Source: Glaucostegus cemiculus
Taxonomy: Eukaryota
Direction of reading: 5' to 3'
NCBI GenBank assembly: GCA_976551045.1
Contig: CDPCPM010000157.1
Location: 5,084,001 to 5,148,000 of the forward strand
Length of the DNA: 64,000 nt
Shown here piece after piece: positions 3,470 through 60,214 of the stretch; within the stretch, counting starts at the first letter, position 1; each line of letters opens with the position of its first letter. Both the position numbers and the translations under genes were made by a program. A model generated the notes under the pieces. The model had not been told where the DNA came from. It saw only the letters and a list, made by a program, of their open reading frames with translations, and searched no databases.

Positions 3470-4565
3470 ACACTGTCAGAATGCTGTAAGTTCAAAGCTC
3501 ATTCCTCAGGTCTGAGCACATCATCTCAAAAGATACTCTAGTATCTAGTACAGTACTGAGGGAGTGCTGTACTGTTCAAAGTTCCATGCAGAGTTGAGGT
3601 CACAATCAGATCTACATGATCTTATTCAATTGAAGAGCAGATCCTCCTGCTCCTCATTCATATGTTTGTATCTCCATCTTTCAGATAAGATGTTCAACTT
3701 AGGCCCTATCTACACTACCAGGTGGATGTGAAAGTTCAAAAGGCACATCCCAAGGCACGTACAAGACATTGGTGAGACCACACTTGGAGCATAGTGTTCA
3801 GTTCTGGCTGCCGAGCTACAGAAGGATGTCATTGAGCTGGAAAGGGTGCAGAAGAGATTCACGAGGGTGTTGCGGAGACTGGGCAGCCTGAGTTACAAGG
3901 AGAGGCTGGACAGGCTGGGATTGTTTTCCCTGGAGTGAAGGAGACTGAGAGGGCTGTCCTTATAGAGACGTATAATGCCACGAAGGGCATGGATAAGGTG
4001 AATGGCTACGGTCTTTTATCCCCCTGAGTAGGAAAATCTAAAACCAGAGGGCATAGTGTTAAGGTGAGAGGGGAAAGAGTTAAAGGGGACCTGAAGATTT
4101 TCACACAGAAGGTGCTGAGTATATGGAACAAGCAGCCAGAGGAAATGGTAGAGGTTGATATAAATACAACATTTAAAAGACATTTAGACAGGTACATGGA
4201 TGGGAAAAGTTTAGAGGTTAATGAGGCAAATGCAGGTAAATGGGACTAGCTCAGGTAGACAACTTGGTCGGCATGGACGAGTTGGGCCGAAGGGCCTGTT
4301 TCCATGCTGTGTCACTCTCCGACTCCACGACTATTTAGAAGAAGAGCGAGGGAGTTTGCTCTGGTGTCCTGAGCAATATTAATGCAGTAAAACCATTAAA
4401 AGTAAATCACATCAACAGCACCTTGTTGCTACTTCGAGGGCAAATTGGCTGCTGTGCTTTCAATGTAACGGCAATGACTACATTTCAAAACGTGCTGCAT
4501 CAGCTGCCAAAGAATGCTGGACATCCTCTGGTCCTGAAAGTTGCTACATAAATGCAAATTTTTAT
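3470..4565 (+). mobile_element. Deu-domain SINE (SacSINE1/AmnSINE1-like), interrupted by CR1 pieces
   Basis: cagtactgagggagtgctg...caggtggatgtgaaag...[CR1]...ctatttagaagaagagc..ggtgtcctgagcaatatt and the ataaatgcaa tail. Confidence 0.75.
3755..4330 (+). mobile_element. CR1 LINE 3' end (HER1-like)
   Basis: YKTLVRPHLEHSVQFW, LERVQKRFTR, LGLFSLE and FTQKVLSIWN motifs, then the gggccgaagggcctgtt tail. Confidence 0.92.
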
Positions 4566-5680
4566 TTTAGGCAGTACACGAGGGGGTTGATTATTTTGTG
4601 TGTATGTTAAAGGTAAAATCCTACTTTTGCTTTATCTTGCCTGGTGCTGTGCACGAAGGTCAAGTGTAAGGTGAACAGAACTCAGTTCCAGAAAAGACTA
4701 ATCACTTGCTTCCCTGCTGTGTTAGTCACCCGAGCCAAAGGTTGCTGAGTTGGAAATACAGAAGCAGGCAGGATCTTTGTTCCCAACCACGATCCACCCA
4801 GATCTGTGCAAATGTGGAAATCCACTGACAATGGATTGGCTGGTAATGTGATTCACCCCATGCTCGAACAGCCAATCGATATTCATAGTGCAATCCCACA
4901 GGGGAAGAACGGCAAACCATCATCCAGCAGACATGGAACTGCTTCCCGACATGAACAGCATGAGCATTTTCATGCCGAATCGAGGAGGATTAGCTTTCCA
5001 GAGGACAGATGGTGGTAATGCAAATTTAACATTAATCACTGGCAGATATGCAGAACTGTTAAGGACATTCATCACACGGTGGGAGGAGAATCAAAACAAG
5101 TGACTGGAGAATCGGAATACGTCCTGGTTGTCTCGAAGCTCTGGGCCAGCAACGTCCTGAGTGAGAGTGACGACATCGAGAGATCTGAGACACGGTCCGG
5201 GAGAGGCGTATCATCAAGATTGATATTTCAGTGCAGGAGGGACAAACTGCTAAACAATCGGAGATGCTTCAGATTTAACATAACAAAGATGTGGTTTATA
5301 CCCCTCGGGCCAGAAGCACCACATCTTTAAGGAGGAACAATGTGAAGTGTACAAAATGCTCAGCACAAAGAAAGGAGAGATATTAAAGGCTGTATCATCT
5401 CTGAAAGTGGATTAATTATCAGGTCCAAATTAAATACATCCCAAGCATGGGAGGAAATAATGCAGCCTCTAGCTATTGTTTCCCAGTCCTCATTAGTTAG
5501 AGATTTGGTGCCAGAGGCTTGGAAGAAGACAAATGTGATATTGTTGATGTACAGAAGGGGAAAAACGGACAGAGCGTGTAACTACAGGGCAGTCAACCTA
5601 GCCCAGCCCTGGGCCCCAATTTTAACTGTTCTGAGGCAGCATTTATGAGCATTTGGACAGGCACAGGTTAATCACAGACA

Positions 5681-5908
5681 GAAGAAAAACACGATGATGC
5701 TGGAGGAACTCAGCAGGCCAGGCAGCGTCTGTGGAGAAAAACAGGCGGGTCAACGCTCAATATGTTGACCGCCAGTCTTAAAGAAGGGTCCTGACCTGAA
5801 ACGTTGACCGCCTGATTTTCTCCACGGATTTTCTCCTGGCCTGCTGTGTTCCTCCAACATCATAGAGATTTTCATCTAGATTCCAGCGTCTGCCGTCCTT
5901 TGTTTCTC
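5681..5908 (+). mobile_element. Penelope-derived hairpin element with a decayed hammerhead motif
   Basis: Inverted arms gatgctggaggaactcagcagg / cctgctgtgttcctccaacatc; agaagggtcctgacctgaaacgttgac at about 5781-5808. Confidence 0.75.
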
Positions 5909-6157
5909 CTCAATCACCGACAGGGTGGATTTCTTCAGGGAACATTGTGCCTGACAAACTATCGAAGAAGTAACATTGAGGGCTGATGAGGGCAGCACAT
6001 TTGATGTAATCTACATAGAGTTTAGATAAAGTCCGACATAAAAAACTGATTAGGTAAGTGTCCATGGATCCCTGAGGTAGTGGGAAGAGGGTTTGTAGAT
6101 AAGGAGGTTAAATGGCATGTGAGATGCTTTCCTTTCTCATCTGAGTCACTAAGCATG

Positions 6158-6372
6158 AGAACAACAAACAACCTGCTGGAGGAACTCAGCAGGTTGAACT
6201 CCACCTGTGGGAGAAAAGGAGCTGTCGATGTTCCCATTCGAAACCTTGATCATCAGGGTCCTGATGACCCAAAACATCAACAATTCCTTTCCCTCTACTC
6301 GACCCACTGAGTTCCTCCAGCAGACTGTTTGTTGCTCCAGATTCCAGCATCTGCAGTCTCTTGCGTCTCCAC
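6158..6372 (+). mobile_element. Penelope-derived hairpin element
   Basis: Arms aacaaacaacctgctggaggaactcag / ctgagttcctccagcagactgtttgtt; centre catcagggtcctgatg holds two head-to-head CTGATG cores. Confidence 0.75.
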
Positions 6373-6592
6373 AGAGTATAAAAGGTGGCGAGTCCTGCTA
6401 TACCCACCAGCTGTACACATTCTTCCAACCACGGCTGGAGTACTGTGTATAGTGCTGGTCACCGCACTATTGGAAGGATGTGACAGCACTGGAGTGGGAG
6501 CAAAGGAAGGTTATGAGGATGTTGCCAGGGCTTTGAGCAGAGACTGCGCAGGCTGGGGTTGTTTTCTTTCAAATGAAAGAGACCAAGGTGTG

Positions 6593-7425
6593 CAAAATTA
6601 TAGGATGCCTCAACTAGATAAGGAGTTGGCCACTAGGAGGCTTGGATTTAAACTAGAAGGACAGAGAGAAGGAATAAAAAGGAGTTGCAGATAGGAGTTC
6701 CCAGCCTCGGAGGGGTAAGAGTCTGGAAGGCAGAGTCTAAAATGATGGTGAATGTTGAAAGGTATTTAGCTGAGCTACAAAAGACCTGTAACTCACAAGG
6801 CTAATGGCTGAGAACATAGAACAGGCCCTTTGGCCCATGATGTCTGTGCTGTATCTCCTAAATCAAACCTTTTTCGGTCAACATGGACATAACAGCCTCT
6901 CCTGTGCCATAAACTGCTCTGATTCTGTGTAAGAAACTACAGCCACCAGCAAATAAAAGAGGTAAGGAAACTAGTACATTGACGGAACATACAGACAATG
7001 CTAGTGACGGGGAGGTACAGTGATACATAATAAGTGACCAAACAGATGATAAGATCTACAAAAAGATCTACAGAAAGAAAGTTTGCAAGAGATGTCATAA
7101 TTTCTTCACAGGAGAAACCTACAATCCCATTAGTCAGTCCAGTGAACATTTGCTGTATGCTCTGTTTTGCAAGTATTTCATACATCATGGGCCAAAGGGC
7201 CTGTTCTATGTTCTCAGCCTTGTGAATTACAGGCCTTTTGTAGCTCAGCTAAATACCTTTCAATATTCACCATCATTTTAGACTCTGCCTTCCAGACTCC
7301 TAACCCTCTGAGGCTGAGAAACCTATCCGCAAATCCTTTTTATTCCTTCTGTCTGTCCTTCTAGTTCAAATCCAAGCTTCCTGATAGCCAACTCCCTATC
7401 TACTTGAGGCATCTTATAAAATTTG
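6593..7425. repeat. Inverted repeat with ~250-bp arms (6593-6843 and 7182-7425)
   Basis: For example gagtctggaaggcagagtctaaaatgatggtgaat pairs with attcaccatcattttagactctgccttccagactc; roughly 85-90% identical. Confidence 0.95.
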
Positions 7426-7439
7426 TTATAATTACATTT

Positions 7440-8385
7440 GAAAAGAGTGGTCAGGAGCAATGAGACCCTGTGAAAATAGATAACGGTGATAAGGCGCTAG
7501 TGTGGAGTGTGAGAAGAACGCAGGGAGATTTCAGGGGATATGGACAGGCTAAGTGAATGGACAAGGATGTGACAGATGGAGTGTAATAGGGAAAAGTGTA
7601 AGGTCACAGACTTTAGTCAAAAACAATGGAAATGCAGAATATTTTTAAAACAGTAAGAGTCTGATACTTGTTGGTGTTCAGAGGGACATGGGGATCCTTG
7701 TACTCAAAGCACTGAAAGTGAACATGCAGGTGCACTGGGCAATTAGGAAGGCAAATTATGTATTGGCCTTTCCTGCAGGTAGATTTGAATCCTAGAGTAA
7801 GCAAATCTTTCTGCAATTATATAGGGCCCTGGAGAGACTGCACCTGGAATATTGTGTACAGAGTTGGTTCCCAACCTCAGGAAGGAAATACTTGAAAAAC
7901 AAAGCGTATAGCAAATGTTCACTGGACTGACTAATCGGATTGTAGGATTCTCCTGTGAAGAAAGATTCATAAAGCACCTATATTCTCTCTATTGTTCTGT
8001 ATTTAGAACAATAAGAGTTGATCCCATTGAAACCTACAAAGTTCTTTCAGGGCTTCACAGGGCAGATGTGAGGCTGATGTTCCCAGGCCGGGGATTTCAT
8101 GAACCAGGGGTCACAGACTCAGAATAAAGGATCATCCATTCACGACTGAGATGAGACAAAATTTCTTCATTGAGTGGGTGATACATTTTTGGGAATCTCT
8201 TCCCCAGAGGCTGTGGAGGCTAGGTTCCTGAATGCATGTAGATTGTGGGATGATAAGGAAATCGAGGTATATGGAGTTAGTGCAGGAAAGCGGCACTTGA
8301 GGTAAGAGATTGGACACAATCTTAATGAATGGTGCAGCAAGCACGAAGGGCAGGTGGCCCAGGTGTACATCCATTTCCTCCAATG
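7440..8385 (+). mobile_element. CR1 LINE ORF2 3' portion and tail
   Basis: LYRALERLHLEYCVQ and DPIETYKVL motifs; CR1-type 3' UTR. Confidence 0.85.
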
Positions 8386-8799
8386 TAAAGGCAGATAAAG
8401 AAATGTGTACCTGTTGAATAATTACATCAGTACATTCCTAAGAAGAGAAAAGCATTCTGGAAATTCTAAAGAAACAAACACTGAATCAAAAACTGCGATT
8501 CCACCAAAAGGTGCTGTAGTGAAGAAAATAATGATACTTAAGGATGACAACTTCCTGAGTCCAGATGGTTTGCACTCCTGGATTTTATAGGAAGTAGGTG
8601 ACACCACAGAGGGTGGAAAATTCTTTGGTTACAATATTATTTAATTCTTATCATGTTTCCTGACACGTTGGAGCAGCAGAGAGTGATATTTCCTTCCTTG
8701 GCAAGGACATAATAAATAGAAGCAAGTGTAGGACCTTCATGCCTGCCTTGCCTGTCAATCAGATCATGGATGATCGTCTACTCTCCTGCACTGACTCCA

Positions 8800-9081
8800 T
8801 GTCCCTGTGTGTTTACCACCACCGATGGCCCCACTAGCCTTGGATTCCACAAACACCTTGTGCCCACTCCGCCTCCCCTCCCTTATCCACCTATCACTGC
8901 TCTGCTTTTCCCTCCTATACGTTGGGCTTCCCCTTTTCCTATCCTCAGTCCTGAGGAAGGGTCCTGACCCGAAATGTTGACCGCCTGATTTTCTCCACGG
9001 GTGCTGCCCGGCCTGCTGAGTTCCTCCAGCATCATCGTCTTTTTCATCTAGATTCCAGCATCTGCAGTCCTTTGTTTCTCA
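8800..9081 (+). mobile_element. Penelope-like element pLTR/3' fragment
   Basis: C-rich leader, hammerhead motif, then the gctgagttcctccagcatc...agattccagcatctgcagtc end shared with the hairpin elements. Confidence 0.75.
8946..8983 (+). ncRNA. Minimal type I hammerhead ribozyme motif (Penelope-associated)
   Basis: cagtc-CTGAGGA-a-gggtc-ct-gaccc-GAAA-tgtt-gaccg: CUGANGA and GAAA core, closed stem II, stem I cagtc/gaccg. Confidence 0.75.
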
Positions 9082-9189
9082 AAGGAAAACAAGATCTGGA
9101 AATCCAAATCAAAAACAGAGGATGCTGGAGGTGCTCAGCAGGACAATCAACATCAGAGGGGATGAAACAGAATTGATGTTTCGGTTCAG

Positions 9190-10130
9190 AAATGGGTTGT
9201 ACACAGCACTGGCTAGAACACATTGGTTAGCAATTTTGGCCATAAATAATAGGAAGGGAATATGGGGAGTATTGGCTTTGGAGGGAGTGCAGCGTACCAG
9301 AATGATACATGGACTCAAGTGGTTAAATTCTGAGACAAACCTGGATTGTATTACTGAAGCTTAGAAGGATAACAGATGGCTTGATTAAAGATTTTATGAT
9401 TATGGGAATCTGATGGGACATGTAGAGAAAAAAAGTATTTTTGCTCACTGATTGGGAAGTTGATTGGCTCCACCACAGCCACATTAAACATTCACTTCCT
9501 CCACCACCGGCACACAGTGGCTGCAGTGTGTACAGTCTACAGAATGCACAGCAGGAATTCATCTAGTTACCCTGACATGACCTTCCAAACCTGTGACCTC
9601 CATCAGCAAGGAGGACTGGGGCAGCAGGCACCACCTGCATGTTCCTTCACCAAGCTACAAACCATCCCGATTTAGAAATACAAGGCTAGACCTTCATTGT
9701 CACTGGGTCTAAATCCTGGAACTCCCTATCCAACAGCACTGTGGAAGTACTTCCGCCAGAAGAATTGCAGTGGTTCAAATAAGTAGCTCACCACCACTTT
9801 CTCAAGGGTAATAAATGCTGCCCTTACCAGTGATATGGTTAAACTTATGAGACAAACGTGGATTGCATTACTGAAGCTTAGATGGATAAGGCTTAGAGAA
9901 CCACCTCCAGAAAATGAATACATTCTAAAACATGTCTGCAGTTGGAGGACAGAACCTAAAAATTAAATTCAGGCTTTTCAAGTCTTAAGTTGGAAAGCAC
10001 TTCCACACAAAGAGATAGAAGTTTGACTCTCATTCACAAGCGACCACTGAACTGTAAATTATAAACCTGAGATGATAGTTTGTCGTTAGTAGGATTATTC
10101 AGAGGTATGGCCACGAGTTTAGAGTCTAAA
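9190..10130 (+). mobile_element. Old CR1 fragments with a second LINE 3' end (about 9465-9835) between them
   Basis: ALEGVQR motif; second element has HRHTVAAVCTVYRMH and the gctcaccaccactttctcaaggg..aataaatgctg tail. Confidence 0.6.
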
Positions 10131-12208: not shown

Positions 12209-15200
12209 TTCTCTCTACCCCGGACCTCTCACCCCACCTCACCCATCTCTCCCTTCCCTTTGGTAACTCCTTCTCCTTAACTTTGTCTCCACACAACCCG
12301 TCGTAATGCACGTCATCCTGTGAAGCCACTAAACAGGCTACCAGCAAACAGCAGCTGAAGAACAATGACGTGTGTCTGAGACATATATGTACACTTCTCT
12401 GGGTGCCTCTGGACACTGCAGTGTACAGCTACTTCAGCTGAGGAGTTCTCATAGAATTCCCTCCTGCTTTTGCGTTCTGACAAGGGTCTGCGGAGAGGGA
12501 ATGCACTGAGCCAACTGAAACAAAAGCAGAAGATGCTGGAAGTCCTCATGAGGTCAGGCCCCACCTGTGGGAGGAGAAACAGACCCAATGTCTCAGGTCG
12601 TAAACCTTCATCAGAACTGGGTAGGAGTCTCAGATTTTCAGCGTCTGCACATTTTTGATTCTCACTGAACCAGCTCCTGAGTTAAAGCACAGAAAGAAAA
12701 CCTTGCACTTCATGATCCAAGTAACAACACGCAGCAGACTAAGCCCACTTTATCAATGCGTTCACAGTTGTAACACTGGAAGTGAAGCAACCAACTTACA
12801 CTCATGAAGCTCCCACAAGGAGCAATGAGAAAATGAGCAAGTGGTCTATTTTAGTGACGTTGCTGTTCCACAGTCCTTGGTTGTCATTAAGTTCAGGCTT
12901 GGAAAATTTCCCTTTAGCTACAGAAGGTGAAGGGTTCCAGCAGATGGGCTCTCTATTCTTAGCTGACGGCGGTGATTTTTCACATCAGAATGCAATTTCA
13001 GCATTTATTTAAAGGTCCGGGCATCACCTCTGCCACCGTAACCCCAGCTGACGTGGGCTAGCGTTCGGGATAACCTTGCTTAGAAAGGCAACAGAATGAG
13101 GAGGCCGACAGTGGCACCCACAGCTCTTGGGAGGAGCTATCCCAGACACTGTTTGCAATACTCCCTGATATAAATCAGAGACTTCTGACGAAGACTTATT
13201 AAGTTTTAGAATTCAATAAAACTTTGAAATCATTCACCCGCAAGGACTGTCCGCCATACACTTGTCTTTCCAACGTCACCACCCAGAGTTAAATTCATCC
13301 CCATTCAAGGGGAACAATAGCCAATGTGAGATGGGTTGGGGAACGTGAGCAAGCCAGTTCCAAGTCAGCATGGACAACAGCATCGCATGCTCCTCAACTT
13401 AGCATTTAATTGGCTGCTACCCTCCTACGAGAGGCTGATAAATAGGGAAGGCCACACAGTACATTCTTGAGGTTACAATCATGTGCCTTTCTCGCAATCT
13501 GGGAGCTTGTCGACACTTGTGTAAGCCACGCCATATGAATGGGGGCACTTGGCCAAGGTGTTCCAGCACGAACCATCTCGTTCTGCAGTGGCACTGGAGA
13601 AGAGTGAAGATCTAATGGGATTGTGTGTGAACACAATCTTAGCTGGAGGTAAGCTCCCAGAAGACAACACAGTTATCAATTTCTATTTGAACAACCCTTT
13701 GTCGCCATAGAGAATAAAGTTGTGCTCCATTGGGAAGACAGAAATAAAGCTTTCAGGATTTCCATTCCTGTTGGCAATCCAGATGTCTCTGCTGGTTAAC
13801 AGAAACATGTGGGGATTGAGTGAATGGTTCAGCTGGGATATCAGCCACAGTAAAATGACTTGTCTTGGTATGAGAGATGGCCGCTCGAGTGTGTTGCTAA
13901 ATGGTTGCCTAGGCATGGTAACCATGGTCACGTCATGAGCATCACCAGGAGAGAAATGGAGGAAACTAGGGGATTCAAAAAAATAATAACACGCCTCACA
14001 TTGCAGGTGATGTGAGACAACTTGATGCTCAGGGAAATGGGACTTGCAGAAAGATGCGCGTGACTGGAAGAAACGTTGGTTTGATCTTGAACACTTAGTG
14101 ATCTGTGAGTTAATACAGAAAGTGCAGGAAAAACTCAGCCAGTCAAGCAGCATCTGTGGAACCCAGTCAACAGTTCAGGTCAGCGATTTTTCCTCAGCAC
14201 CTAGTCATCTGGGAACCCAGATGACTAGTCTTAGAAATAAGGGAACAATTATTTTAACATTTTAATATCTATTCCTATGTATTGCTTTAGAAAATAAGGG
14301 CAGCAGCCACCTGCTTCCACATCCCTTCTCCATGCTTACACAGCTAGTATCTGACGTGAAACAGTCACACCCTTGGCCGACGTTCGCACTGGCCAATGGC
14401 AAAGCTTTAAATGAAGACGTCAAAGTGCAGAGGGGCCAACCAGAGTTCCCTGAACTCAAACCAGCTACTTTTGTCATTTCTCCACATTCCAGCTCAGTCC
14501 TACACGAGCTCAAGCCTTCTCTAACCTGATTGACAGCTGAGGCTCCCTTGAACTCCATCTCAGAACCGTGTATTAGAAAGGGTAGCATCTGTCTACAAAC
14601 AGACCAGCTACCAAGCCACCGCTCTACTTGCAGGATGACCTCTTGACCAGAGTAAAAGAGGGGACCTCATGAGAGAGCCAATCAGACTCCCAGAATGAAA
14701 GCCCAGGACATCAAAGCCACCGCGGGTGGCTGGGGGAGGAGAACTCTGGATAGGGAGAAAAATCCAAAGGCAAAGGCTTGTGCCTGATATAGGATACAGT
14801 CTTGATTTCCCTCAAGCAGACAGAAGCCACAGCTCCTGTAATTCACAAACCACATCTTGTGTAACCTCCCTTTACTCCTTCTGGAAATTAGCCCAACAGA
14901 CAAGTGGAGAGGGATTCTCTGGAGATGGATCAGGGCTGGCACCACTGAGCAGCACTTTGTGAAGAACCCTTGGGAGAGAGGAGGCAGCCTCGGAGATGAG
15001 AGTACCAGGGTTCGCTGGCTCCCACCCAACCGTGGGTGAAACCGCTTGGGGACATCTTTCAAGTGCACGGTAGCCCTTCAGGTTTTGCCCACAATCAGAC
15101 ATGGGTGAGCATTCACAAGGAATGATCAGTATCAAGCCACGTGTTCCCCACTGATTTACCCTCTCCGTGCCACCATGGGGAATGCCCCAGCAGGCTCCCA

Positions 15201-15929
15201 GGTGCCAGGTGGCAGGCATCTGTCACCAAGGGCAGGGGTTCTCCTATCTAGCTGGATTCCAATTCCCAGAGGCTCTTGAGAAAGTGCATCTCCAGGGCCT
15301 CCCTTTCTGGATGGCGAACCAATCCCCTCCACAAGGGAGAGCAGCTGCAGGTCCTGGAGTTACTAGAGAAACTTCCACGCAAACAAAAGGTGGCCGCCTG
15401 AAAATGGCAGCTGACACTGATGAGACCGAACAGCCTGGGAAACCCACTGTGATTCTGGGCATCGAGGGGTGGTAATGGGTGAAGACAAGTGGTGGGGGTT
15501 GTGGATGGACCTGGCTTCGCAGGACACAATTCTCTGTTGCAGGGGCAGGAGCCGAACCCTGACATGAGACTGTGGGAAGGAATATTCACGGTACACAGAG
15601 AAAAGCAAATGAAGATGGATGAAAGAATGGGTGATATTTTATTCAGTAAATTCAGAAGAGTTATCCTTTCATATTACGGACACCTAGACTTTCCCCTGCG
15701 GCACAGCAATCAAAAGAAAAACTGCTCCACTGGGCTGAGACCTGTAAATCTGACATAGTTGGCTCTGACAAGCCGAATGAATGTGTGAATCCATTCCAAC
15801 ACCCAACGCATTCTCAGTGATCTGCAGTCCTGTGCCAGTTATGGACACCTCTTAGCATTCACATTGAGAATGGATCCTTAGCATCATCTTTCTTCAAAGC
15901 AGGATAATACCCCATGAGATAATGATAAG

Positions 15930-16180
15930 TAGCGTAGCGGTTAGCGCGACGCTGTTACAGCACCAGCGATCGGGGTTCGATTCCCGTCGCTGTCTGTAAG
16001 GAGTTTGTATGTTCTCCCGTGTCTGCATGGGTTTCCTCCGGGTGGTCTGGTTTCCTCCCACATTCTGAAAGACGTACGGGTAGGTTAATTTGGGGGTTAA
16101 AAATGGGTGGCATGGACTCGGAGGGCCGAAAGGGCCTGTTACCATGCTGTAAATAAATAAAAAAATTATTTAAAAAAAAA
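15930..16180 (+). mobile_element. Young V-SINE with CR1-type tail
   Basis: A/B boxes, V-domain and A-rich end. Confidence 0.92.
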
Positions 16181-19186: not shown

Positions 19187-19419
19187 TTTTTTTCATTTAC
19201 AGCGTGGTAACAGGCCCTTTTGGCCCAATGAGTCCACGCCGCCCATTTAAAATCCCCAAATTAACCTACCCGTACGTCTTTAGATTGTGGGAGGAAACCG
19301 AAGCACCCGGAGGAAACCCACGCAGACACGGGAGAACGTACAAACTCCTTACAGTCAGTGATGGGAATCGAACCCCGATCACCGGCGTTGTAACAGTGTC
19401 GCACTAACCGCTACGCCAC
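19187..19419 (-). mobile_element. Young V-SINE fused at its 5' end to the ferritin fragment
   Basis: T-run at the left, full body, head ends at gtggcgtagcggttag on the minus strand. Confidence 0.92.
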
Positions 19420-19761
19420 GAGGAGTGGGAGCATGCGGAGAAACTGATGAAGTTCCAGAACCAGCGCAGAGGACGTGTTATTCTCCAGGACGTTTCGAAA
19501 CCTGACCAGGACGAGTGGGGCGATGGACCTGAGGCTCTGCAGTGTGCCCTTCACCTGGAAAAGACTGTCAACCAGTCTCTCCTGGAGCTCCACAAACTTG
19601 CTGCCAACAAGAATGACCCTCATATGTGCGACTTCTTGGAAACCCACTACTTGCATGAGCAGTTCGAGGCCATAAAGAAACTTGGAGACATGATCACCAA
19701 TCTGACTTGCATGGGGGCGCCCCAGAACGGCATGGCGGAGTACCTGTTGGACAAGCTCTGA
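19417..19761 (+). pseudogene. FTH1: Processed pseudogene fragment of ferritin heavy/middle subunit (about residue 60 to near the C-terminus)
   Basis: [94 protein letters not shown]. It reads through two conserved vertebrate ferritin intron positions, has no N-terminus, and shows a likely CpG change (R to W). H versus M subunit is not resolved. Confidence 0.95.
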
Positions 19762-23997: not shown

Positions 23998-24654
23998 TTT
24001 TTCTCTCACTGAAAATACTCATCTTGGCACAATGAAGTCAAAATTAGTTCTGCTGTTTCAAAATCCGAGTCAGTCCTGTCATGGAATAGTAACCAAACAA
24101 CTTCTTCATGCTTTATTGAAAAGTGTTTCTTGTCCTTTCATCAGTCCCAATGCCAAAGCAAATAGAATTGAAATTTAATCCAGAATTTCCTCTCAAGTGA
24201 TGGTAGATCTTTCCGGGAGATGGAAATGAGATGTGGAATGATTCCCAGGAGGTGCACTTGGCCCAGCTTTTGTTCCACTCTGTTCGACCCCCCCCCCACT
24301 GAACGACCCCCCTCCCCTTCAGTTCCCCACATCCCTCGAAGGTTCTGCATGGTGTTGGGGGTTACCCAGGCTCTAGCAATACTTGGAACAACCACAGAAA
24401 TGCTGGAACAACCCAGCCTGTCAAGCAGCACCTGAGGAAGCAGAAACCAGCCAACATTTCAGGCTCAAGACCCTCCATCAGAACTAGCAATACTAGCAAT
24501 ACTCCATCAGTGCGTCTAGTTCCACTCTGTGTGAGTTCAATACGAACCAGTCAGCAGCCGTGTGGATTCATGGAGTATGACCCACAGGGGTAAGGCTAAT
24601 CAGTCCACTGCCCCCATTCTGACCCTTAGTAAAAGAGGATGGCTTAATCCGACA

Positions 24655-26519: not shown

Positions 26520-27269
26520 TCAGAATCAGAATCAGAATCATTTTATTGTCACAACCATATACACACACACAGTCTGCATAGGAGCGAGATACCGTCCTCC
26601 ACAGGTGCACGTCACATTAAATAACAAGCAGAAGACACACTAAAAAACAAAACATTAAAACCATGAAAATTAAATTAAATTCAGCAGGTTAAATAAATAG
26701 TTTTAAAGTGAACGAACTGGTAGTGGGCATTTAAAGTGCTGGTGCGTTTCTGAGCGCCTAGCACCCTTTAGTGTTAACAGGGTAGATGGAGGAATGCGAG
26801 AGTTCACAGTTCTGATGGCTTGCGGGAAGAAGCTATTGCACAGCCTCGTCGTTCTCGCCCTGATGCATTTGAGCCTCTTTCCAGACGGCAAGAGTGTGAA
26901 GAGATGATGGGAGGGGTGAGGAGGATCCGACATTATATTTTTGGCCTTCCTAACACAATGGTCCTTGTATATGTCTGCGATGGAGGGGAGAGAGACAGTA
27001 ATGATCTTTTCCGCTGCCCTTACTATCCTCTGGAGGGACTTCTGTCCAGCAGCTGAGCAGCTCCCAAACCAGACAGTGATACATTGAGTTAGGATACTCT
27101 CGATGGTCCCTCTATAAAAAGTTTTCATTATCGAGGGATGGGAGTTCACTTTCCTCAGTCTCCGCAAGAAGTAGAGGCGTTTCTGGGCTTTCTTAGTGAG
27201 GGCCGTGGTGTTAGTGGACCAGGTCAGGTCATCAGTGACCTGCACCCCCAGGAACTTGGTGCTGCCTAC
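26520..27269 (-). mobile_element. 5'-truncated Rex1/Babar LINE with uninterrupted C-terminal ORF
   Basis: KFLGVQVTDDLTWSTNT..KKAQKRLYFLRRL..FYRGTIESILTQCITVWFG..DPPHPSHHLFTLLPSG..RTTRLCNSFFPQAIR; (TTCTGA)n tail at 26520-26540. Confidence 0.95.
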
Positions 27270-27374
27270 TTGGTTATGGTTGGTTATGTTCACATAACCA
27301 ATACATAACCAATACACAACCATGTCAGAAGATCAAGGTCCAATCCGAGAACATTTTATTACCAAGGCCGATTG

Positions 27375-28352: not shown

Positions 28353-29499
28353 TGTTATACTGCTCAAGGTTTTGGCATTTGGCACACGTTAAAGCTGAGC
28401 TTCACTGAGCTTGTTCAGGGACTCCTGAGAAATTCCACGGTACCATTTTAAGAAGAACGAGGAATTCATTTAAACACAAATTAACCTCATTGCTCATGGG
28501 ATCTGGCTGTGCACAGACTTGCCCATTTAGCAAGAATATACAAGAGGAAGAACACAGATAAAGTGAAGCATTCACAAGGATAGAGGGATTTATGTGACAG
28601 AGATATGAGAAAGAGAAACAAATGCACACTGATAGCACAGAGAAATTTGTGTCCATCAGTACAGTTGGATTTCAGCCAAGCTCCTCATGTAAAAGAAAAG
28701 TAATATATTCTACCACTGAACCCAATTCTATCATTTCAGACTTTAGCTATAATATTGTCCATCTGCTCAGGTCCTCTACCAAAGATCACCTACAGATCCC
28801 AGAGTCTCAGGATGCCATGATCTTCCACAACACAACAGTAGACCTGAGGGCTGAATGGCCAACCCTTGCTCTTATCTGTGATGTTCTTGAGAGATGGCAG
28901 TCCATTCCTTCATGTAAAGCATTCAGCTTCTTCTCACCATTTGCCAGAAGAGTATCAGGAGTAGGTGTGCTGGGGGTTGGAGGGTGGGGGGTGGATGGTA
29001 GTAACCAGACACTAGAGGAGCTGGAGGTGAAGTACCCAAATCCCACTGGAGTCAAGACTTACTCCTCTGTCGACTCTCGAGGTCAACCCTTTGCTTTGGA
29101 TGTGAGGAGATCAGAATTTGGGCCCGTATTTCCATATGACACAGAAAGAGACCATTCAGCCCATCGAGTCCAGGCCAGCTTACAGAGGAATCCCGTTCCC
29201 CTCCTAATTTTCCCTGTAACCTATTTTCCCCACATCCCCGATAATTCTACTGCACAACCACAGTTTTCAGTGGCCAATTAACTCATCAACCTGTACACCT
29301 TTGGGTGTGGGAGGAACCCCAAGCAGTCACAGGGAGAATAAGCAAACTTTACACAGACAGCACTGGAAGTCAGGATTGAACTGGTATCACTGGAACAGAG
29401 GCAGCAGCTCCATTAGCCGCACTGCTATACCATCCAGTCAATACAGCCCCCAGTGGATCCAATGAGAAAGTCAGGAGGAGCTTCATCAGGAATTACACA

Positions 29500-30862: not shown

Positions 30863-31482
30863 GTGCCCCTGACTGATACAGCTACCGCGCAGAGTTCCAG
30901 AGTTAACCTTGTATGTATAAATAAAAACCTTTCAATGCAACTTCTGTTTTGTCCATTCAGTTCTTCGAGTCCTTTTGATGTAGCCCTACCTGTAATCCAA
31001 ATCCTAACCTTATTAGGTTATTTGTACCCCTACTCCGTGCACCTCACTCCCACCCTGTCCCAGGACAGCAGCTGCTTTCTGGAGATTTTCACCTTGCTCA
31101 CTCTCACCTATCCCATCGCTAACCTTACCAATGTGCCTCTTGTTTTGGATTCCTCCCACCCAACGACCAACCAAAATAGTGGCTCTGCCACCATCCTGCT
31201 GAACTCAATCAGATGAGCCCTCCGATATTTGAAACTCAAGGGAGTGTGAACCTCAGAACTGAACCCAATGTCACTCCAGCAGGTATACACTTTGCCTCAA
31301 TCAACAAATTATCCTGAGATCAGAGCTCAAAAGTCAACAGATGGGTCTGATCAAGCCATTGAATCACTTGCAACAAACAGTCTGCTGGAAGAACTCAGGG
31401 GGTCAAGCAGTGTCTGTGGGGGGGAGGGGGGAAAGGAACTGTCAACATTTCGGGTCAAAACCCTGCATCAGGACCCTGACTC

Positions 31483-35269: not shown

Positions 35270-35516
35270 ATTTTAAATTTAAATTTTATTTACAGCGTGG
35301 TAACAGGCCCTTTCAGCCCTCCGAGTCCACAACGCCCATTTTAAACCCCCAAATTAACCTACCCGTAAGTCTTTCAGAATGTGGGAGGAAACCGGAGCAC
35401 CCGGAGGAAACCCACGCAGACACGGGAGAACGTACAATCTCCTCACAGACAGTGACGGGAATCGAACCCCGATCGCTGGCACTGTAACAGCGTCGCGCTA
35501 ACCGCTACGCTATCAT
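35270..35516 (-). mobile_element. Young V-SINE nested in an older LINE tail (about 35205-35800)
   Basis: Full A/B boxes and V-domain on the minus strand. Confidence 0.92.
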
Positions 35517-38780: not shown

Positions 38781-39440
38781 TCACGTCATTGATTCCAACC
38801 CATGGCATGCAGTGGCACCCACACTGAAGACTATTTGACTACATGGAGCACTGCCTGTTCCTAAAGTACAAGGGTCTGTAGAACCGTCTGTTACTATGGT
38901 GCAAGGCTCCATAGCGCCGCCTGTTCCTACGGTACAAGGCTCCATGGCACTGCCTGTTCCTACAGTACAAAGCTTCATGCCACTGCCTGTTCCTATAGTA
39001 CAAGGGTCTATGGAACCGTCTGTTCCTATGGTGGAAGGGCCCATGGCACGGCCTGTTCCTACGGTACAAGGCTCCATGGCTCTGCCTGTTCCTTCAGTAC
39101 AAGGCTTCATGGCACTGCCTCTTCCTATAGTACAAGGCTCCATGCCACTGCCTGCTCCTACGGTGCAAGGCTCCCTGGCACTGCCTTTTCCTAAGTTAGA
39201 AGGCTCCATGGCACTGCCTGTTCCTACAGTAAAAGGATCCATGTCATCTCCTGTTCCTATAGTAGAAGGCTCAATGTCACCGCCTGTTCCTACGGTACAA
39301 GATCCCATGGCACTGCCTGTTCCCCTGGATATCCCTGCACAATGTTGCTTTGAGCCTGTACCCAATAAACAGGCAGATCCATTGAACTTGTACTGTCTAA
39401 CAGCCAATAAACACAGAACCAAGCCTCGGGCAATGTCTCC
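38781..39440 (-). CDS. Candidate terminal coding exon, 219 codons, with 11-aa repeats (TVGTGSAMEPC)n; product unknown
   Basis: Acceptor with branch-point-like ctaac, pyrimidine tract and CAG directly before 39440; frame open to TGA at 38783-38781. No homolog recognised and no upstream exon found. Confidence 0.3.
   Translation of the reverse strand, partial: GDIARGLVLCLLAVRQYKFNGSACLLGTGSKQHCAGISRGTGSAMGSCTVGTGGDIEPSTIGTGDDMDPFTVGTGSAMEPSNLGKGSAREPCTVGAGSGMEPCTIGRGSAMKPCTEGTGRAMEPCTVGTGRAMGPSTIGTDGSIDPCTIGTGSGMKLCTVGTGSAMEPCTVGTGGAMEPCTIVTDGSTDPCTLGTGSAPCSQIVFSVGATACHGLESMT
38848..39324. repeat. 33-bp minisatellite, about 14.5 copies
   Basis: Consensus cctgttcctacagtacaaggctccatggcactg; no indels between units. 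Confidence 0.95.
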
Positions 39441-40093
39441 CTGAGAGATGGGGAGAAACCCAGGGAGTTAGGGAAGAAATGACAGGGAGTTAGGGAAGAA
39501 CAGGGAGGGTAACTCCCTTGTTGGGAGTGACTGTAAGCAACAGCACGTTCTGCAAATCACAGGCCTGTAGCAAAACATTAAGTAAATCAGATCACATGTG
39601 TGTTGTGTGCAGGACCAGGGCAGACAATGTGCCTGTTAACCACTGGAGTTTTTCATCTCATGAAAACATTGCAATCTGATCCGGGCTGCTTAAACTCCCC
39701 ACTCGAAGCCTCTCTGCGTGCCAAACACTGCAGTTCAATTGGAGCTGTCAGGATGAATAACGTCTGCCTGTCTGTTGCTGCAAAGTGATGTTTTATTAAA
39801 GTCATCGCGCAGGCACTGGGTTTGAACCAAGAGATTATCAGGAGACGCCTGCTGTCTGTGATGGAACAAGAAAAATGCCCACTCCTACCCCAACAAATCA
39901 CAATGGCAGTGAGGAATTCTCCCAGGATACCAAAGGGAGCCTTCGTACCTGGCTTCCAGAGAGATAATTAGCACAACTAGACAGGCATAAAATGGGATTC
40001 CATTTCTCTGCGACCTGAGCATTGGTTGTGTAGTCACTTTGTAGTCTAATTATGGGTTAGTCCAGCAATGGTTACAACAACAACAACAACAAC

Positions 40094-40760
40094 TTGCATT
40101 TCAGAATCAACCACGTAAACACCACGGCCAAGAAAGCTCACCGGCGCCTCTACTTTCTCAGGAGGCTAAAGAAATTCGGTATGTCCTCTTTGAGGCTCAC
40201 CAACTTTCATCGATGCATCATAGAAAGCATCCTATCTGGATACCTCACAGCTTGGTACGGCAACTGCTCTGCCCAGGACCACAAGAAACCGCAGAGAGTT
40301 GTGGACACAGCCCAGTGCATCACGGAAACCAACCTCCCCTCCAAGGATTTTGTCTGTACCTCTCGCTGCCTCAGTGAAGCAGCCAGCATAATCAAAGGCC
40401 CCACCCACCCTGGGCATTCTCTCTTATCCCCTGACCCATCGGGCAGAAGATACAGGAGCCTGAAGGCACATACCACCAGCCTCAAGGACAGCTTCTATCC
40501 TGCTGTCATAAAACTATTGAATGGTTCTCTAATACAATAAGATGGACTCTTGACCTCCCAATCTACCTTGCACCTTATTGTCTATCTGCGCTGCACTTCC
40601 TCTGTAGCTGTGACACTTTACTCTGTGTTCTATTATTGCTATACCCTGTACTACCTCAATGCATTGTGTAATGAATTGATCTGCACAAACAGTATGTAAG
40701 ACAAGTTTTTCACTGTACCTCGGTACAAGTGGCAATAGTAAACCAATACCAATACCAAAC
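40094..40760 (+). mobile_element. Rex1/Babar LINE 3' fragment with open ORF end and UTR
   Basis: AKKAHRRLYFLRRLKKFGMS..IESILSG..AWYGNCS..HPGHSL...PSGRRYRSL..TTSLKDSFYPAVIKLLN; (TACCAA)n tail; preceded by (CAA)n. Confidence 0.95.
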
Positions 40761-41059: not shown

Positions 41060-41640
41060 GAATAGCGAGATAGGGGAGGAGCAGAAGGAGAAAGGGAGGA
41101 GGGGAGTGGGTTAAGAGAAGGTGAGAGAGAGTGAGTAAAGACAGCAGAATGTGAAGGACAAGTAAATAAAGAGTGAGGTGGTTAGGTGGGCAAGATTGGG
41201 AGAATACTGGTCAGGAGGGATAAGGAACACAATATAAGGCAGGAAGAGAGGAGGCAACAATCTCAAGCAGGGGGTCAGGTAACATGGAGAAGGAGGATGT
41301 GTGAAAGTACAACGGGGGGAGGGGGACGGGGAGAGAGAATGCAAGGAGTGCAAGTGGATGGAGAGTCAGCACAGGGAAGGAGAAAGAGTGCCAGATTAAA
41401 AAATAGAGAGGGTGGGCAGAGAGAAAAGAGGAAGGAAGCTGGAGGAAAGGAGAATGGATAGGAAGAAAAGGGGCAAGAGGGAGGGAAGAGAAGGGAGGGA
41501 GATGGGGGGAGGGAGAAAGGTAGAAGGGAGGGAGGAGGAGTAGAAGAAGGGAAAGAGAAAAAAAGGGTGGAGAAGGAAAAGATCAGTCAGGCCAATGAGC
41601 AAAAGAGAAAAGAAGGGTGAAAGAGAGAGAGAGAGAAAGT
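41060..41640 (+). repeat. Long purine-rich low-complexity tract
   Basis: Strongly A/G-biased over about 580 bp. Confidence 0.85.
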
Positions 41641-42424: not shown

Positions 42425-42650
42425 GAAGCCTGACCTCTCTTTCTTTCTCTGCTGATGCTGTTTGACCAGCTGAGTGTTTCCAACTTCTACCAACGCACGC
42501 AAAATGCTGGAGGAACTCAGCAGGTCAGGCAGCATCTACGGAGGGAAATAAACAGTCGACGTTTTGGGTCGAGATGCTTCATCAGTTCCTCCAGCATTTT
42601 GTGTGTGTTGCTGCAGAGTCCAGGATCTGCAGAATCTCTCGTGTCTCCAA
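42425..42650. mobile_element. Penelope-derived elements with a decayed minus-strand hammerhead motif
   Basis: Minus strand reads ctgatgaagcatctcgacccaaaacgtcgactg; arms aaaatgctggaggaact / agttcctccagcatttt. Confidence 0.7.
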
Positions 42651-47851: not shown

Positions 47852-48177
47852 TAAGTAAATGAAGAGGAAGGAAAAAACTTTCACAGCATCGGTTATAAGG
47901 ATGGAAGGCCAAAGGGTCTCGGGAGGTTGGTTCGAGGGAATTGGAGAGCAGCAGGGGATGGACAACACTGGGGGGGAGGAGGGGTGGTTCTGACGCAGGG
48001 TTTCAACATGAAACATCAGCAATTCCTGCCCCCCCCCCACACACACAGATGTTGCTCGACCCGCTGAGTTCCTCCTGCGCGTTGTTTGTTGCAACGTAGG
48101 GAGGCTGGGATGGCTCAGGGCAGGTGGTCTGTACGGTGTTGGGAGTGGGTGCACGAGGATTTGAGGGACATTACTTT

Positions 48178-48639: not shown

Positions 48640-48840
48640 AAGAGACCACAGATGCTGGAAATCTGAGATAAAAACAGAAAATGCTGGGGATTCTCAGCAG
48701 AATGGGCAGCCTCCACAGAGAGAGAAGAACAGAGTGAGCGTTTCAGATCAAGAACCCTTCATCAGACTTCGCCCACCTGCTTCCCTCTCTACAGATGCTG
48801 CTTGACCTGCTGAGTATTCCCAGCATGTTCTGTTTTTTAT
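48640..48840 (-). mobile_element. Penelope-derived hairpin element
   Basis: Arms ataaaaacagaaaatgctggg / cccagcatgttctgttttttat; minus strand ctgatgaagggttcttgatctgaaacg. Confidence 0.7.
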
Positions 48841-49551
48841 CCTAGTGGCTAATGCATTTCACTCAGGAAATGGAATTGATTTTCATTTTCATAACATCAT
48901 GCAATTGAATTTTTAGGCGACAGGATTAAGAATGTGAAAGAAGTTGTCTACAGAAGCTGAAAGGACTGCTGCATTAAAACAGCCTTCCCAATGCCCTTCA
49001 CACCCAAGGGAGCCCAGAGCTGCTGTTACTGTTCTCTGGAGATAACCAGAGGCAATTATAGACTGATGCTGCTTCCAGTAATTTTCTATGGGGCCGGCTC
49101 GCACAGGTTGCGATGTTATATCCTGGGTTTGTAGCTGGACTGTAGCCGTGAATCTGATGGGAGATTCATCAAGAGATACCCCCACCAGATCCTGGTACCT
49201 GAACTGCAAGAGGAGCAAAATGAAAGGGCAGCAGAATTCCCAGCGGCAAAAGGAGAAAAGGTATCCCAATGAATATCAGAGAAAAGGAATCACAATAAAT
49301 CCCAAAGAACTCCTGCATGAGACCAGGGTGCACTGGCTCCTAGATTCTGGGGCTGTGGTTCAGTGGCCTAAAGCAAGATTCCATCATCATGGCCATTACT
49401 TAAAGCAAGAATAACTAATTTCTAAGTATTACTTTTCCTGTTTATAAAGATCCCATGGAGATAATAAGTTGCAAAATCTTGAGTTGCCAAATAATATGAT
49501 AAAAATATGGCAGTATTGCTTCTTTAAAACACAATACGTCTATGTTTATAG

Positions 49552-57433: not shown

Positions 57434-58011
57434 GTTTAAGAATGAACTAAGAACTGGGCTGCTGGACTGGGATGCCTCCCAGTCCAATAGACTGGAACAC
57501 TTGACTTTAAGCAGCTGGGTATTAATACTTGCTATTTGATGAGTTATTGACGGGACCAGGAAAATACAGGACTGTGCTGCAGCTCAGAATTAGAGGAAGG
57601 AAAAATAAATTATGAGAAAAAGAAACACAGCTTTGCAAAATAAGCCCAGATCACCTGCGGCGATACTCAATATTTCATGAAGAAGATGAAGGTTCAGTGG
57701 TTCAACCGGGTTCTGCTGCATTTGTTTTAAAATAAAAGAGAGAATCTCTTCAAAACAACTGTTCATTCTAGGAAGCTTTAATTAATCCCGAAAGCTTTGG
57801 TAACACATAGGTTCTAAATATAACTGGAAATGAAGGTGTTTTACAGCCCTAAGTGTTCTCTTCTTGGACTAGTTAAGCCCAATAATTAAGGCTGAACCCA
57901 GCCAGTTCGCCCATTATTGAGCAACCAGTCTCTGCCAGCTAGCCCTCTGAGGTAGTCCTCACAATGAGAGGAGTGAGGTCTTCAAAAATCAGACGTGCGT
58001 AACTATATGCA

Positions 58012-58135
58012 GCAATGAACACAGAATGGTGGAGGAACTCAGCAGGTCAGGCAGCATCTATGGAGGGAAATGAACAGTGGACGTTTCGGGCCGAGACCCT
58101 TCATCAGGACTGGAAAGGAAGAGGGAAGAAGGCAC
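58012..58135 (-). mobile_element. Penelope-derived pLTR fragment
   Basis: ggaggaactcagcaggtcaggcagcatct arm with an embedded hammerhead motif. Confidence 0.75.
58075..58112 (-). ncRNA. Minimal type I hammerhead ribozyme motif (best core in the window)
   Basis: Minus strand cagtc-CTGATGA-a-gggtc-tc-ggccc-GAAAC-GTC-cactg; palindromic ACGT in place of stem III; one C-C mismatch at the base of stem I. Confidence 0.8.
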
Positions 58136-58294
58136 AACTATACATTAAACCTCACACTGCCATTTCTGGCTGTCTTGTTGTGAGAAGGACAGTTCCAAGA
58201 GGAGTGGTTGGTGTTGACAAAGCAGGCAGGCACATCTGGGGCAGTGTGGATGGCCACAGGTTGAGGCTGAAGGGAGTTTAACCAGATCCAGGGT

Positions 58295-58600
58295 GACACC
58301 ATGGCATAGTGGCACAGCTAGTAGTGCCACTGCCTCACAGTGCCAGAGACCCAGGTTCAATCCCGACCCCAGGTCCTCTCTGTGTGGCGCTTACACGTTC
58401 TCCCTGTGACTCCATGGGTTGACTCCTGGTACTCCATATCCCAAAGACATGCGGGCTGGTAGGTTAAATGGTCCTGTAAATTGTCCCTCATGTGCAGGTC
58501 CAAGACAGAATTTGTTGGGGAGTTGGTGGGAATTAGAGTAAATGGGTGCTCGGGCATGGACTTCAATGGCCCAAGGACCTGTTTCAGTACTATACAGTAT
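58295..58600 (+). mobile_element. Older V-SINE
   Basis: Head, ggttcaatcc B-box, V-domain and tail. Confidence 0.8.
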
Positions 58601-59020: not shown

Positions 59021-59940
59021 CAATTTGTTTTAGTGCTCGCTGCACTGTCACAAGGATGTTTGATCCTCCTCCAGGTTATCTGAGCGATCGTGTTCTGGGC
59101 GCCTCAGCTGCGGGGTTTGTCTGTCAACAACATAAGAGTCCATTTTAAGTACAACTGCTTGGATATAAAGCTCCCAGGTGGCTCGATTGAGGGATGTGGC
59201 CATAATCTATGTGCAAGTCACACATAAAACCCAGTCGGCACGTGTTTCAATGCGGGTGTGGCCATACCCTGCAGAAGTGCAGCCCATTGGGTAGCCGGGC
59301 ACGTTCTGCTCTCCTGTGTCTGATGTCCTCCCAGTCACACACGCGGCGACATCACCAACCCGTGCGCCACCCCCCCCCCCCCACCGCGTCAGAGCAATGA
59401 AGTCCAAACTTCAACTGAAACAGAAAATGATGGAACCTCTCAGCAGGTCAGACAGCGTCTGCGGGGAGTGAATCAGTTAATGTTTCGCGCCTGGGATGAT
59501 TCATCCACAATCTCCGTCACTAACTCACAGTAAAACGAGGAGCAAACCCTGCAGTGAGCTGGCTGGGAGCTGTGATTGAAAGGATTCTGGCTGGGGTGTC
59601 GATGTACCGCTGTCTCTGTGTGTGCCCACCTGCGGTTCCAATGCCGTGCACTTGTTGCATCATCGTTGGGTCTCCTGACTCTCAAATTCACGTGCAGCAC
59701 AGACACCCTAAGACCTTGGTCTGAACAATGGACCTGAGACACGTGGTGATGTAGGGCCACTCACAGCAATGGGACTCACTCTGGAAGGACAACCATGGGC
59801 TGAGATGGGTGGCAGTCACACACACACTGAGATATGTAGACCCCACCCCCCCAACACCATGTCCTCCATGTTTTCCCTCACCTTCACAGCAACCTTGTAC
59901 CATGGCAGTGATCTGCTTCCCATTGCTCCTCACAGCTAAG

Positions 59941-60214
59941 ATGCAGCAGCTGCCTCTGGGAGTTGTGCAGGTTGCATTTGAACACATGCAGCAGCTGCAT
60001 TTGGTAAACTGCACAGGTTGCATTTTAGCACCTGCAGCAACTGCCTTCAGGAACGGTGCAGGTCGCATTTTAGCACCTGCAGCAACTGCCTTCAGGCACG
60101 GTGCAGGTCGCATTTTAACACATGCAGCAACTGCCTTCAGGAACGGTGCAGGTCGCATTTTCACATGTGCAGCAACTGCCTTCAGGAACGGTGCAGGTCG
60201 CATTTTAACATTGC
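59941..60214. repeat. 45-bp minisatellite, about 6 copies (2 degenerate, 4 near-identical)
   Basis: Unit gcaggtcgcattttagcacctgcagcaactgccttcaggaacggt. Confidence 0.95.

Follow-up and report, generated by a model that had tools for sequence, protein, structure and literature searches.

A minimal type I hammerhead motif lies on the minus strand at 58112-58075 of the window, by which we mean the whole 64-kb stretch of DNA analysed here, and is contained in an insertion of about 128 bp that belongs to a repeat family. The insertion and the parts of the motif, following the known layout of such motifs, are these:

58008..58135, minus strand: whole insertion of about 128 bp; its 5' truncation falls about 25 nt upstream of C3, and its short 3' end has no tail; aligned sequences show loose ends at 58131
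58136..58142, minus strand: upstream copy of a 7-bp AT-rich direct repeat, a candidate target-site duplication whose score is reached by 17% of unconstrained controls
58001..58007, minus strand: downstream copy of the same 7-bp repeat, at the other boundary
58025..58065, minus strand: downstream box present in every subfamily; no other part of the repeat is as well conserved or as deeply covered
58112-58075, minus strand: minimal type I hammerhead motif, with 12/12 scored core bases, an extra A, stem II and an ACGU palindrome
58112-58108, minus strand: stem I, 5' strand
58107-58101, minus strand: core box C3-A9
58100, minus strand: extra unpaired A after A9 (between 9 and 10.1)
58099-58088, minus strand: stem II and its loop, with the pair G10.1-C11.1 (G58099-C58088)
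58087-58080, minus strand: second core box G12-C17, including the palindrome
58084-58081, minus strand: ACGU palindrome in place of stem III
between 58080 and 58079, minus strand: predicted cut, after GUC; base 1.1 (58079) is C in this copy
58079-58075, minus strand: stem I, 3' strand

About 28% of the window matches itself elsewhere, and SINE-like families with 5-8 or more copies each are found at 58303-58470, 968-1137, 15930-16168, 19246-19415, 35274-35512 and many other places. A 385-bp spacer lies between two inverted repeats of about 100-120 bp (6598-6816 and 7202-7419), which are nested and 89% complementary. A 33-bp tandem repeat of 14 copies at 38848-39323 has one open frame per strand (201 aa on the plus, 228 aa on the minus strand) and no convincing Pfam match; it may represent a minisatellite that codes within an unrecognised exon. 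Another tandem repeat (59965-60210; 45 bp, 5.4 copies, 88% alike) likewise has open frames on both strands. Pfam searches of 649 stop-free frames of at least 48 aa (268 of at least 70 aa and 381 of 48-69 aa) matched one ferritin piece, three ALKBH8_N pieces of LINE type and otherwise only weak models below threshold; they recognised no host exon and no piece of a Penelope-like element (PLE), that is, neither a GIY-YIG domain nor a PLE reverse transcriptase, and motif searches did not find the latter two either. For a candidate exon at 28970-29227 the Atlas returned nothing usable. The ferritin piece (19408-19758, plus strand; Pfam Ferritin, E 3e-22) is intronless, is cut on its 5' side by a SINE-like repeat and looks like a processed pseudogene. 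The ALKBH8_N domain is a marker of LINE-type reverse transcriptase ORFs, namely of their 3' part, and we take the three matching frames (2197-2526 and 26706-27332 on the minus strand, 40061-40537 on the plus strand) to be truncated LINEs.

The sequence-only reading had called a hammerhead at 58075..58112 on the minus strand, and we confirm the motif at exactly those positions, with all core bases kept. Compared with the definition of PLE minimal hammerheads, it possesses all 12 scored bases of the core (C3-A9, G12-A14, A15.1-U16.1 and H17), the palindrome at 15.1-16.1 that takes the place of helix III, and the unpaired base between 9 and 10.1 next to a G10.1-C11.1 pair. Helix I, which in this class has 4-5 bp from 2.1-1.1, forms four of its five pairs; the innermost, 2.1-1.1, adjoins the scissile bond and is a C-C, where the family majority pairs. 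The stem I proposed earlier (CAGUC/CACUG) thus holds except at that pair; the proposed stem II (GGGUC/GGCCC) is also present, but as drawn it closes a 2-nt loop, and the folding program gives four pairs and a 4-nt loop instead. The strict core pattern has a single match in the window, namely this site, against a mean of 0.03 and a maximum of 1 in 30 dinucleotide shuffles of the window, and a fuzzy match to this copy recovers four occurrences against none in the shuffles; the loose core pattern alone is not above chance (10 matches; shuffle mean 6.4, maximum 13). The folding z-score of the copy is unremarkable (-0.46), and an Rfam scan of the window with E up to 5 returned no hammerhead model, its three matches all being microRNA models below their gathering scores; both results are unsurprising for a motif that has no helix III. 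Scans of viral contigs, metagenome contigs and prokaryote genomes with the exact motif pattern gave 0 loci. A core-like string at 15417-15442 in the window lies outside every family match and was treated as chance.

To delineate the family we ran an iterated DNA profile, seeded on the copy at 58008..58135, on the 64-kb window and on a reversed control. It gave 26 matches (one of them weak, E 0.15) against none in the reversed window, some of these being the two arms of one insertion. The repeat family posited from the letters alone is real but larger than the roughly ten copies then counted; all nine of the other sites listed at that time fall inside family matches, although most of their cores are broken. 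When 25 regions were scored for the core, 12/12 bases were present in two (58112-58075, minus, and 8951, plus), which are on opposite strands and 49 kb apart, and 11/12 in nine. The family unit spans about 110-150 bp and runs from a 5' hammerhead through a pyrimidine tract to the conserved downstream box, followed by either a short end or an extra tail of about 35 nt; tails, called by eye, are full in five and partial in two of the 25 regions. Several subfamilies are mixed among the copies. The upstream continuation of the family has no further occurrence elsewhere in the window. The copies that bear on the argument are as follows:

8944..9070, plus strand: the only other copy with a 12/12 core, of another subfamily, with U-G at 15.2-16.2 and one stem I mismatch; besides a 3' tail it includes some 100 nt of upstream sequence rich in pyrimidines
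5679..5898, no single strand: head-to-head inverted pair, tail on the plus arm only, core broken; the direct repeat on its two sides is 9 bp long and matches at all but one position
6143..6358, no single strand: head-to-head inverted pair, tail on the plus arm only, cores broken
42490..42634, no single strand: head-to-head inverted pair of the same subfamily as 58008..58135, tail on the plus arm only, G12 changed; the inverted arm replaces the stem I 5' strand
48644..48854, no single strand: head-to-head inverted pair, tail on the minus arm only, U16.1 changed
24369..24495, minus strand: single copy in which A9 is changed; its flanking direct repeat measures 11 bp and ends 2 nt before C3
14087..14206, minus strand: single copy whose core is broken; the direct repeat that flanks it has 14 bp with 2 mismatches and abuts C3
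31363..31484, minus strand: single copy with C at position 9, as in the copy at 47981-48094 (plus strand)
12504..12624, minus strand: single decayed copy, 11/12 core bases
59413..59519, minus strand: nearest same-strand neighbour of 58008..58135, 1.4 kb off, 10/12 core bases, stems broken

Among 14 copies, a set biased by being selected because their cores were recognisable, 11-13 retain the core positions. At the CpG in the middle of the palindrome (15.2-16.2), 10 of the 14 are changed, nine of them by CpG-type transitions, which points to neutral decay of the kind seen in methylated repeats. Covariation in the stems, for which 11 copies with a recognisable core were compared, did not exceed what shuffling gives (four measures: 112-237 of 500; pair types: 39 of 500), a comparison of little power on copies so old and truncated. 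In two or three of the old copies 10.1-11.1 is A-U, which may be either a true two-sided change or decay plus a register shift, and was left uncounted. Taken together, the motif features and the family matches support a minimal type I hammerhead of the PLE kind within a high-copy non-coding repeat. Three further observations concern the family. The C that replaces A at core position 9 and is then followed by A recurs at 31471 (minus), 47990 (plus) and 50507 (plus), and is possibly a subfamily core variant rather than decay. At 8944-9216 two copies of different subfamilies stand tail to tail, forming a hairpin that gives rise to a spurious sub-threshold MIR7504 match. A long pyrimidine-rich stretch at 41200-41560 (minus), with a faint likeness to the downstream box at its end and no profile match, may be an old, longer pLTR copy that is missing its core.

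We then turned to four public runs (two RNA runs and two contig sets), aligned to 57450-58290 from 85% likeness; the RNA runs are ordinary libraries of another species, of which 18% and 24% were read. The run search behind them listed 24 runs, all with shares of 0.16 or less, and named no RNA run as holding the sequence, which counts as no evidence. Repeat depth is confined to 58001-58145. Over the core the summed contig depth is about 10^5 times that of the flank in run X3 and 4x10^4 times in run X1, figures which do not amount to a copy number and mean simply very many. Some members of the family extend upstream of 58131, following a single consensus (578 reads in run X22; 281 and 121 contigs in the contig sets), which implies that the copy at 58008..58135 is 5'-truncated; in X3 the family depth falls about six-fold from 58088-58116 to 58117-58145. 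Single-depth X3 contigs cover both flanks and enter the element by about 30 nt on each side, borderline by a 31-letter rule, and as they span its edges the insertion probably predates the split from that relative, whose flanks are about 5-7% different. The family makes up 0.09-0.10% of the relative's RNA reads (9,780 of 11.05 million and 12,472 of 12.90 million), with both strands represented over the core (59:41 and 56:44), and the copies must be dispersed because 99-100% of these reads continue into unlike sequence. A splice-acceptor role, brought to mind by the pyrimidine tract and AG that precede both the stem I 5' strand and the downstream box, is unsupported, as no loose end falls at either place among the 24 listed of 627.

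The anatomy of the copies is that of PLE insertions, which are described as strongly 5'-truncated, often with an inverted 5' copy and with a 30-40 bp tail frequently at one end only (PMC8557442). Window copies show the same combination known from endonuclease-bearing PLEs, being 5'-truncated, with an inverted 5' arm and an optional tail at one end. In all four inverted pairs the tail of about 35 nt, read by eye from the ends, is on exactly one arm. The inverted arms recur in a relative: opposite-strand joints make up 7 of the 15 listed (44 in all), and in the contigs of run X3 many such joints connect 58058-58085 to 58105-58131. A score of at least 10 is reached by the direct repeats around 2 of the 10 single copies and by 2% of controls; the 7-bp repeat bordering 58008..58135 is only suggestive as a target-site duplication. 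The family has two alternative 3' ends, about 60 or about 100 nt downstream of the ribozyme. The sequence-only reading had looked to an associated PLE reading frame, and neither such a partner among frames of at least 48 aa nor a full-length copy, with direct pLTRs on both sides of an ORF, was found in the window, a finding of little power given how old and truncated the copies are, since an ORF is not to be expected beside truncated copies; hence the putative link to a GIY-YIG plus reverse transcriptase ORF draws on motif and anatomy.

These features can be set against known systems. Minimal hammerheads in the pLTRs of PLEs were described by Cervera and de la Pena in 2014 (PMC4209133), a paper that catalogues the class; in fish, coelacanth and Xenopus it reports thousands of copies in each genome, some of them solitary and some forming close pairs on opposite strands. 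The family shares with them the type I topology, the absence of a real helix III with a palindrome at 15.1-16.1, the extra base after A9, G10.1-C11.1, the short stem I of 4-5 bp, and the prevalence of single motifs in truncated copies alongside some opposite-strand pairs. It differs in stem II, of 4-5 bp in the window as against 7-8 bp in the Schistosoma families of that paper, and in density, 26 matches in 64 kb exceeding the 4,000-9,000 per genome given there for coelacanth and Xenopus; the copy at 58008..58135 is further set apart from the hammerheads of that paper by its mismatch at 2.1-1.1. Two of the paper's supplement files contain no shark or skate terms (its file 1 was outside the search). 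A closer parallel is the Poseidon PLE of Anolis carolinensis, PAc (Frangieh et al. 2024, PMC11167929), in which a tail of 30-40 nt separates two 3' ends and the hammerhead lies about 100 nt further upstream, the target is AT-rich, and, according to that report, RNA-seq ends at the cut site are wanting. However, PAc has an ORF starting from stem II and a demonstrated protein-assisted cleavage, whereas the window family is known from its sequence and has no linked ORF. Animal non-LTR retrozymes (PMC7229834; bioRxiv 10.64898/2026.07.22.740005) are likewise non-coding, bear a type I hammerhead and are thought to depend on PLE proteins, and the preprint reports them in the one cartilaginous fish that it sampled. 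Within the cartilaginous-fish literature searched, from which most subscription papers and repeat databases were excluded, searches for the family brought up that preprint alone, covering retrozymes and PLEs in one species; the exact family was absent from the papers searched, yet may well be already catalogued, possibly in the preprint's supplements.

Based on these observations we propose that the copy at 58008..58135 is a solo, 5'-truncated pLTR fragment of an endonuclease-bearing Penelope-like retrotransposon, a reading to which we assign a probability of roughly 0.85. A protein of the parent element would nick AT-rich DNA, and reverse transcription would start inside the element RNA at one of two sites downstream of the ribozyme, leaving a short or a tailed end; for the Anolis PLE the tail is explained by two internal reverse-transcription starts about 110 nt into an ORF that begins at stem II (PMC11167929), and the two 3' ends of the window family match these in number and lie similarly far from the ribozyme. 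The cDNA would then run 100-150 nt through the ribozyme before it stops or switches template, the latter giving the inverted 5' arm. The hammerhead would serve, if anything, the RNA cycle of the parent, as a dimer or with protein help: a second copy is needed to form helix III in such motifs (PMC4209133, PMC6765202), and the element protein can assist cleavage (PMC11167929). The completeness of the core and the apparently shared insertion could also be explained by weak selection.

The strongest competitor, which we nevertheless consider unlikely, is a discrete unit of about 130 nt transcribed and mobilised by PLE proteins on its own, as a SINE-like mini-PLE or a monomeric retrozyme. Such a unit would account for 12 of the 22 non-self first-round matches starting within 8 nt of C3, for the flanking duplications that abut C3 in two copies, and for the vast excess of short copies over those with upstream sequence seen as the depth drop in X3, and the 2026 preprint (bioRxiv 10.64898/2026.07.22.740005) holds such units to be non-autonomous PLE derivatives. 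Against it, part of the family extends upstream beyond 58131 with a single consensus, the 5' ends are variable, subfamily differences upstream also halt alignments near C3, and RNA reads derive from both strands. Moreover, the retrozyme-like organisation suggested earlier for the family has no support in the window. Non-LTR retrozymes are head-to-tail tandems of at least two consecutive units, each with a complete ribozyme, and form circular RNA, whereas the window copies are dispersed singles or inverted pairs; none of the 24 tandem rows of the window is an array of the family unit, and the family here consequently falls outside the retrozyme definition of the preprint. Joints that go back number 2 among the 15 listed of 44 in contigs, and none among the listed RNA joints, which come from a library type unsuited to circular RNA.

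The pLTR-fragment reading also bears on whether this copy can act. The C-C at 2.1-1.1 is a departure of the copy from its family: base 1.1 (58079) is the pairing G in 2756 of 4023 and 3339 of 4696 reads of the two RNA runs, and in 72% and 66% of the contig depth of the other two. A mismatch at this place slows engineered hammerheads at least 500-fold, according to the review PMC3138052. The motif had been presented as intact; with a C-C adjoining the cut site where 66-72% of the family carries the pairing G, it is instead probably crippled. At 58091, by comparison, about 66% of RNA reads turn the stem II U-G into U-A, a common one-sided change. The hammerhead is not the best predicted fold, either as a monomer (-7.3 vs -10.1 kcal/mol) or as a dimer (-13.1 vs -28.5 kcal/mol), in a model that leaves out the core contacts, and the 25 scored regions include no intact partner on the same strand. 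Given the mismatch, the want of such a partner in the window and the better alternative fold, the copy is probably an inert passenger.

It had further been suggested that intact copies inside introns could cut host pre-mRNA in pairs. Active ribozymes acting on host transcripts in this way, or a domesticated copy at 58008..58135, appear very improbable to us. The core at 58112-58075 is still complete, and with the family at 0.09-0.10% of a relative's RNA reads, partners for an intermolecular dimer do exist. Yet the pairing of this copy is broken next to the cut, the two full cores of the window are opposite-stranded, 49 kb apart, with no recognised host exon, and the two RNA runs show neither reads on the unique flanks of the insertion nor a pile-up of molecule ends at the cut site or elsewhere, a weak negative from ordinary libraries of another species. 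The Anolis study likewise reports no RNA-seq reads that end at the cut site (PMC11167929). PLE minimal hammerheads are described as cutting poorly in vitro even as dimers (PMC4209133), and eight of nine Xenopus dimers stayed uncut in the preprint (bioRxiv 10.64898/2026.07.22.740005). As for a chance likeness to a hammerhead inside an unrelated short repeat, the plain folding score, the silence of Rfam and the insignificant covariation would fit it, but we consider it extremely improbable in view of the strict-pattern count, the presence of all four diagnostic extras of the published motif, the retention of the core across copies (in a biased set) and the PLE-type insertion anatomy.

As a single locus the insertion has little weight: the copy is decayed, and its motif class has been on record since 2014. 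The family is of some use as material, because so many copies in one genome permit a statistical test, through 5' breakpoints, intron orientation bias and end-capture sequencing, of whether PLE minimal hammerheads cut inside cells, a question that earlier work leaves undecided (PMC4209133, PMC8557442, PMC11167929). In the window, first-round alignments of 4 of the 22 matches start at 61-72, where base 1.1 is 62, which neither shows nor excludes a pile-up of arm starts near the cut site. It is a long shot, but conceivable, that a ribozyme-bearing PLE end has multiplied here to one copy per few kb and about 0.1% of cellular RNA reads, that insertion 5' ends piled at the ribozyme record where the template started, and that young intact copies pair between molecules and cut host RNAs. 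If 5' ends do pile up at base 1.1 or just before C3, they would be a fossil record of the start of the template RNA, and such a pile-up would, if true, supply the missing in vivo evidence for cutting by the minimal hammerheads of Penelope-like elements.
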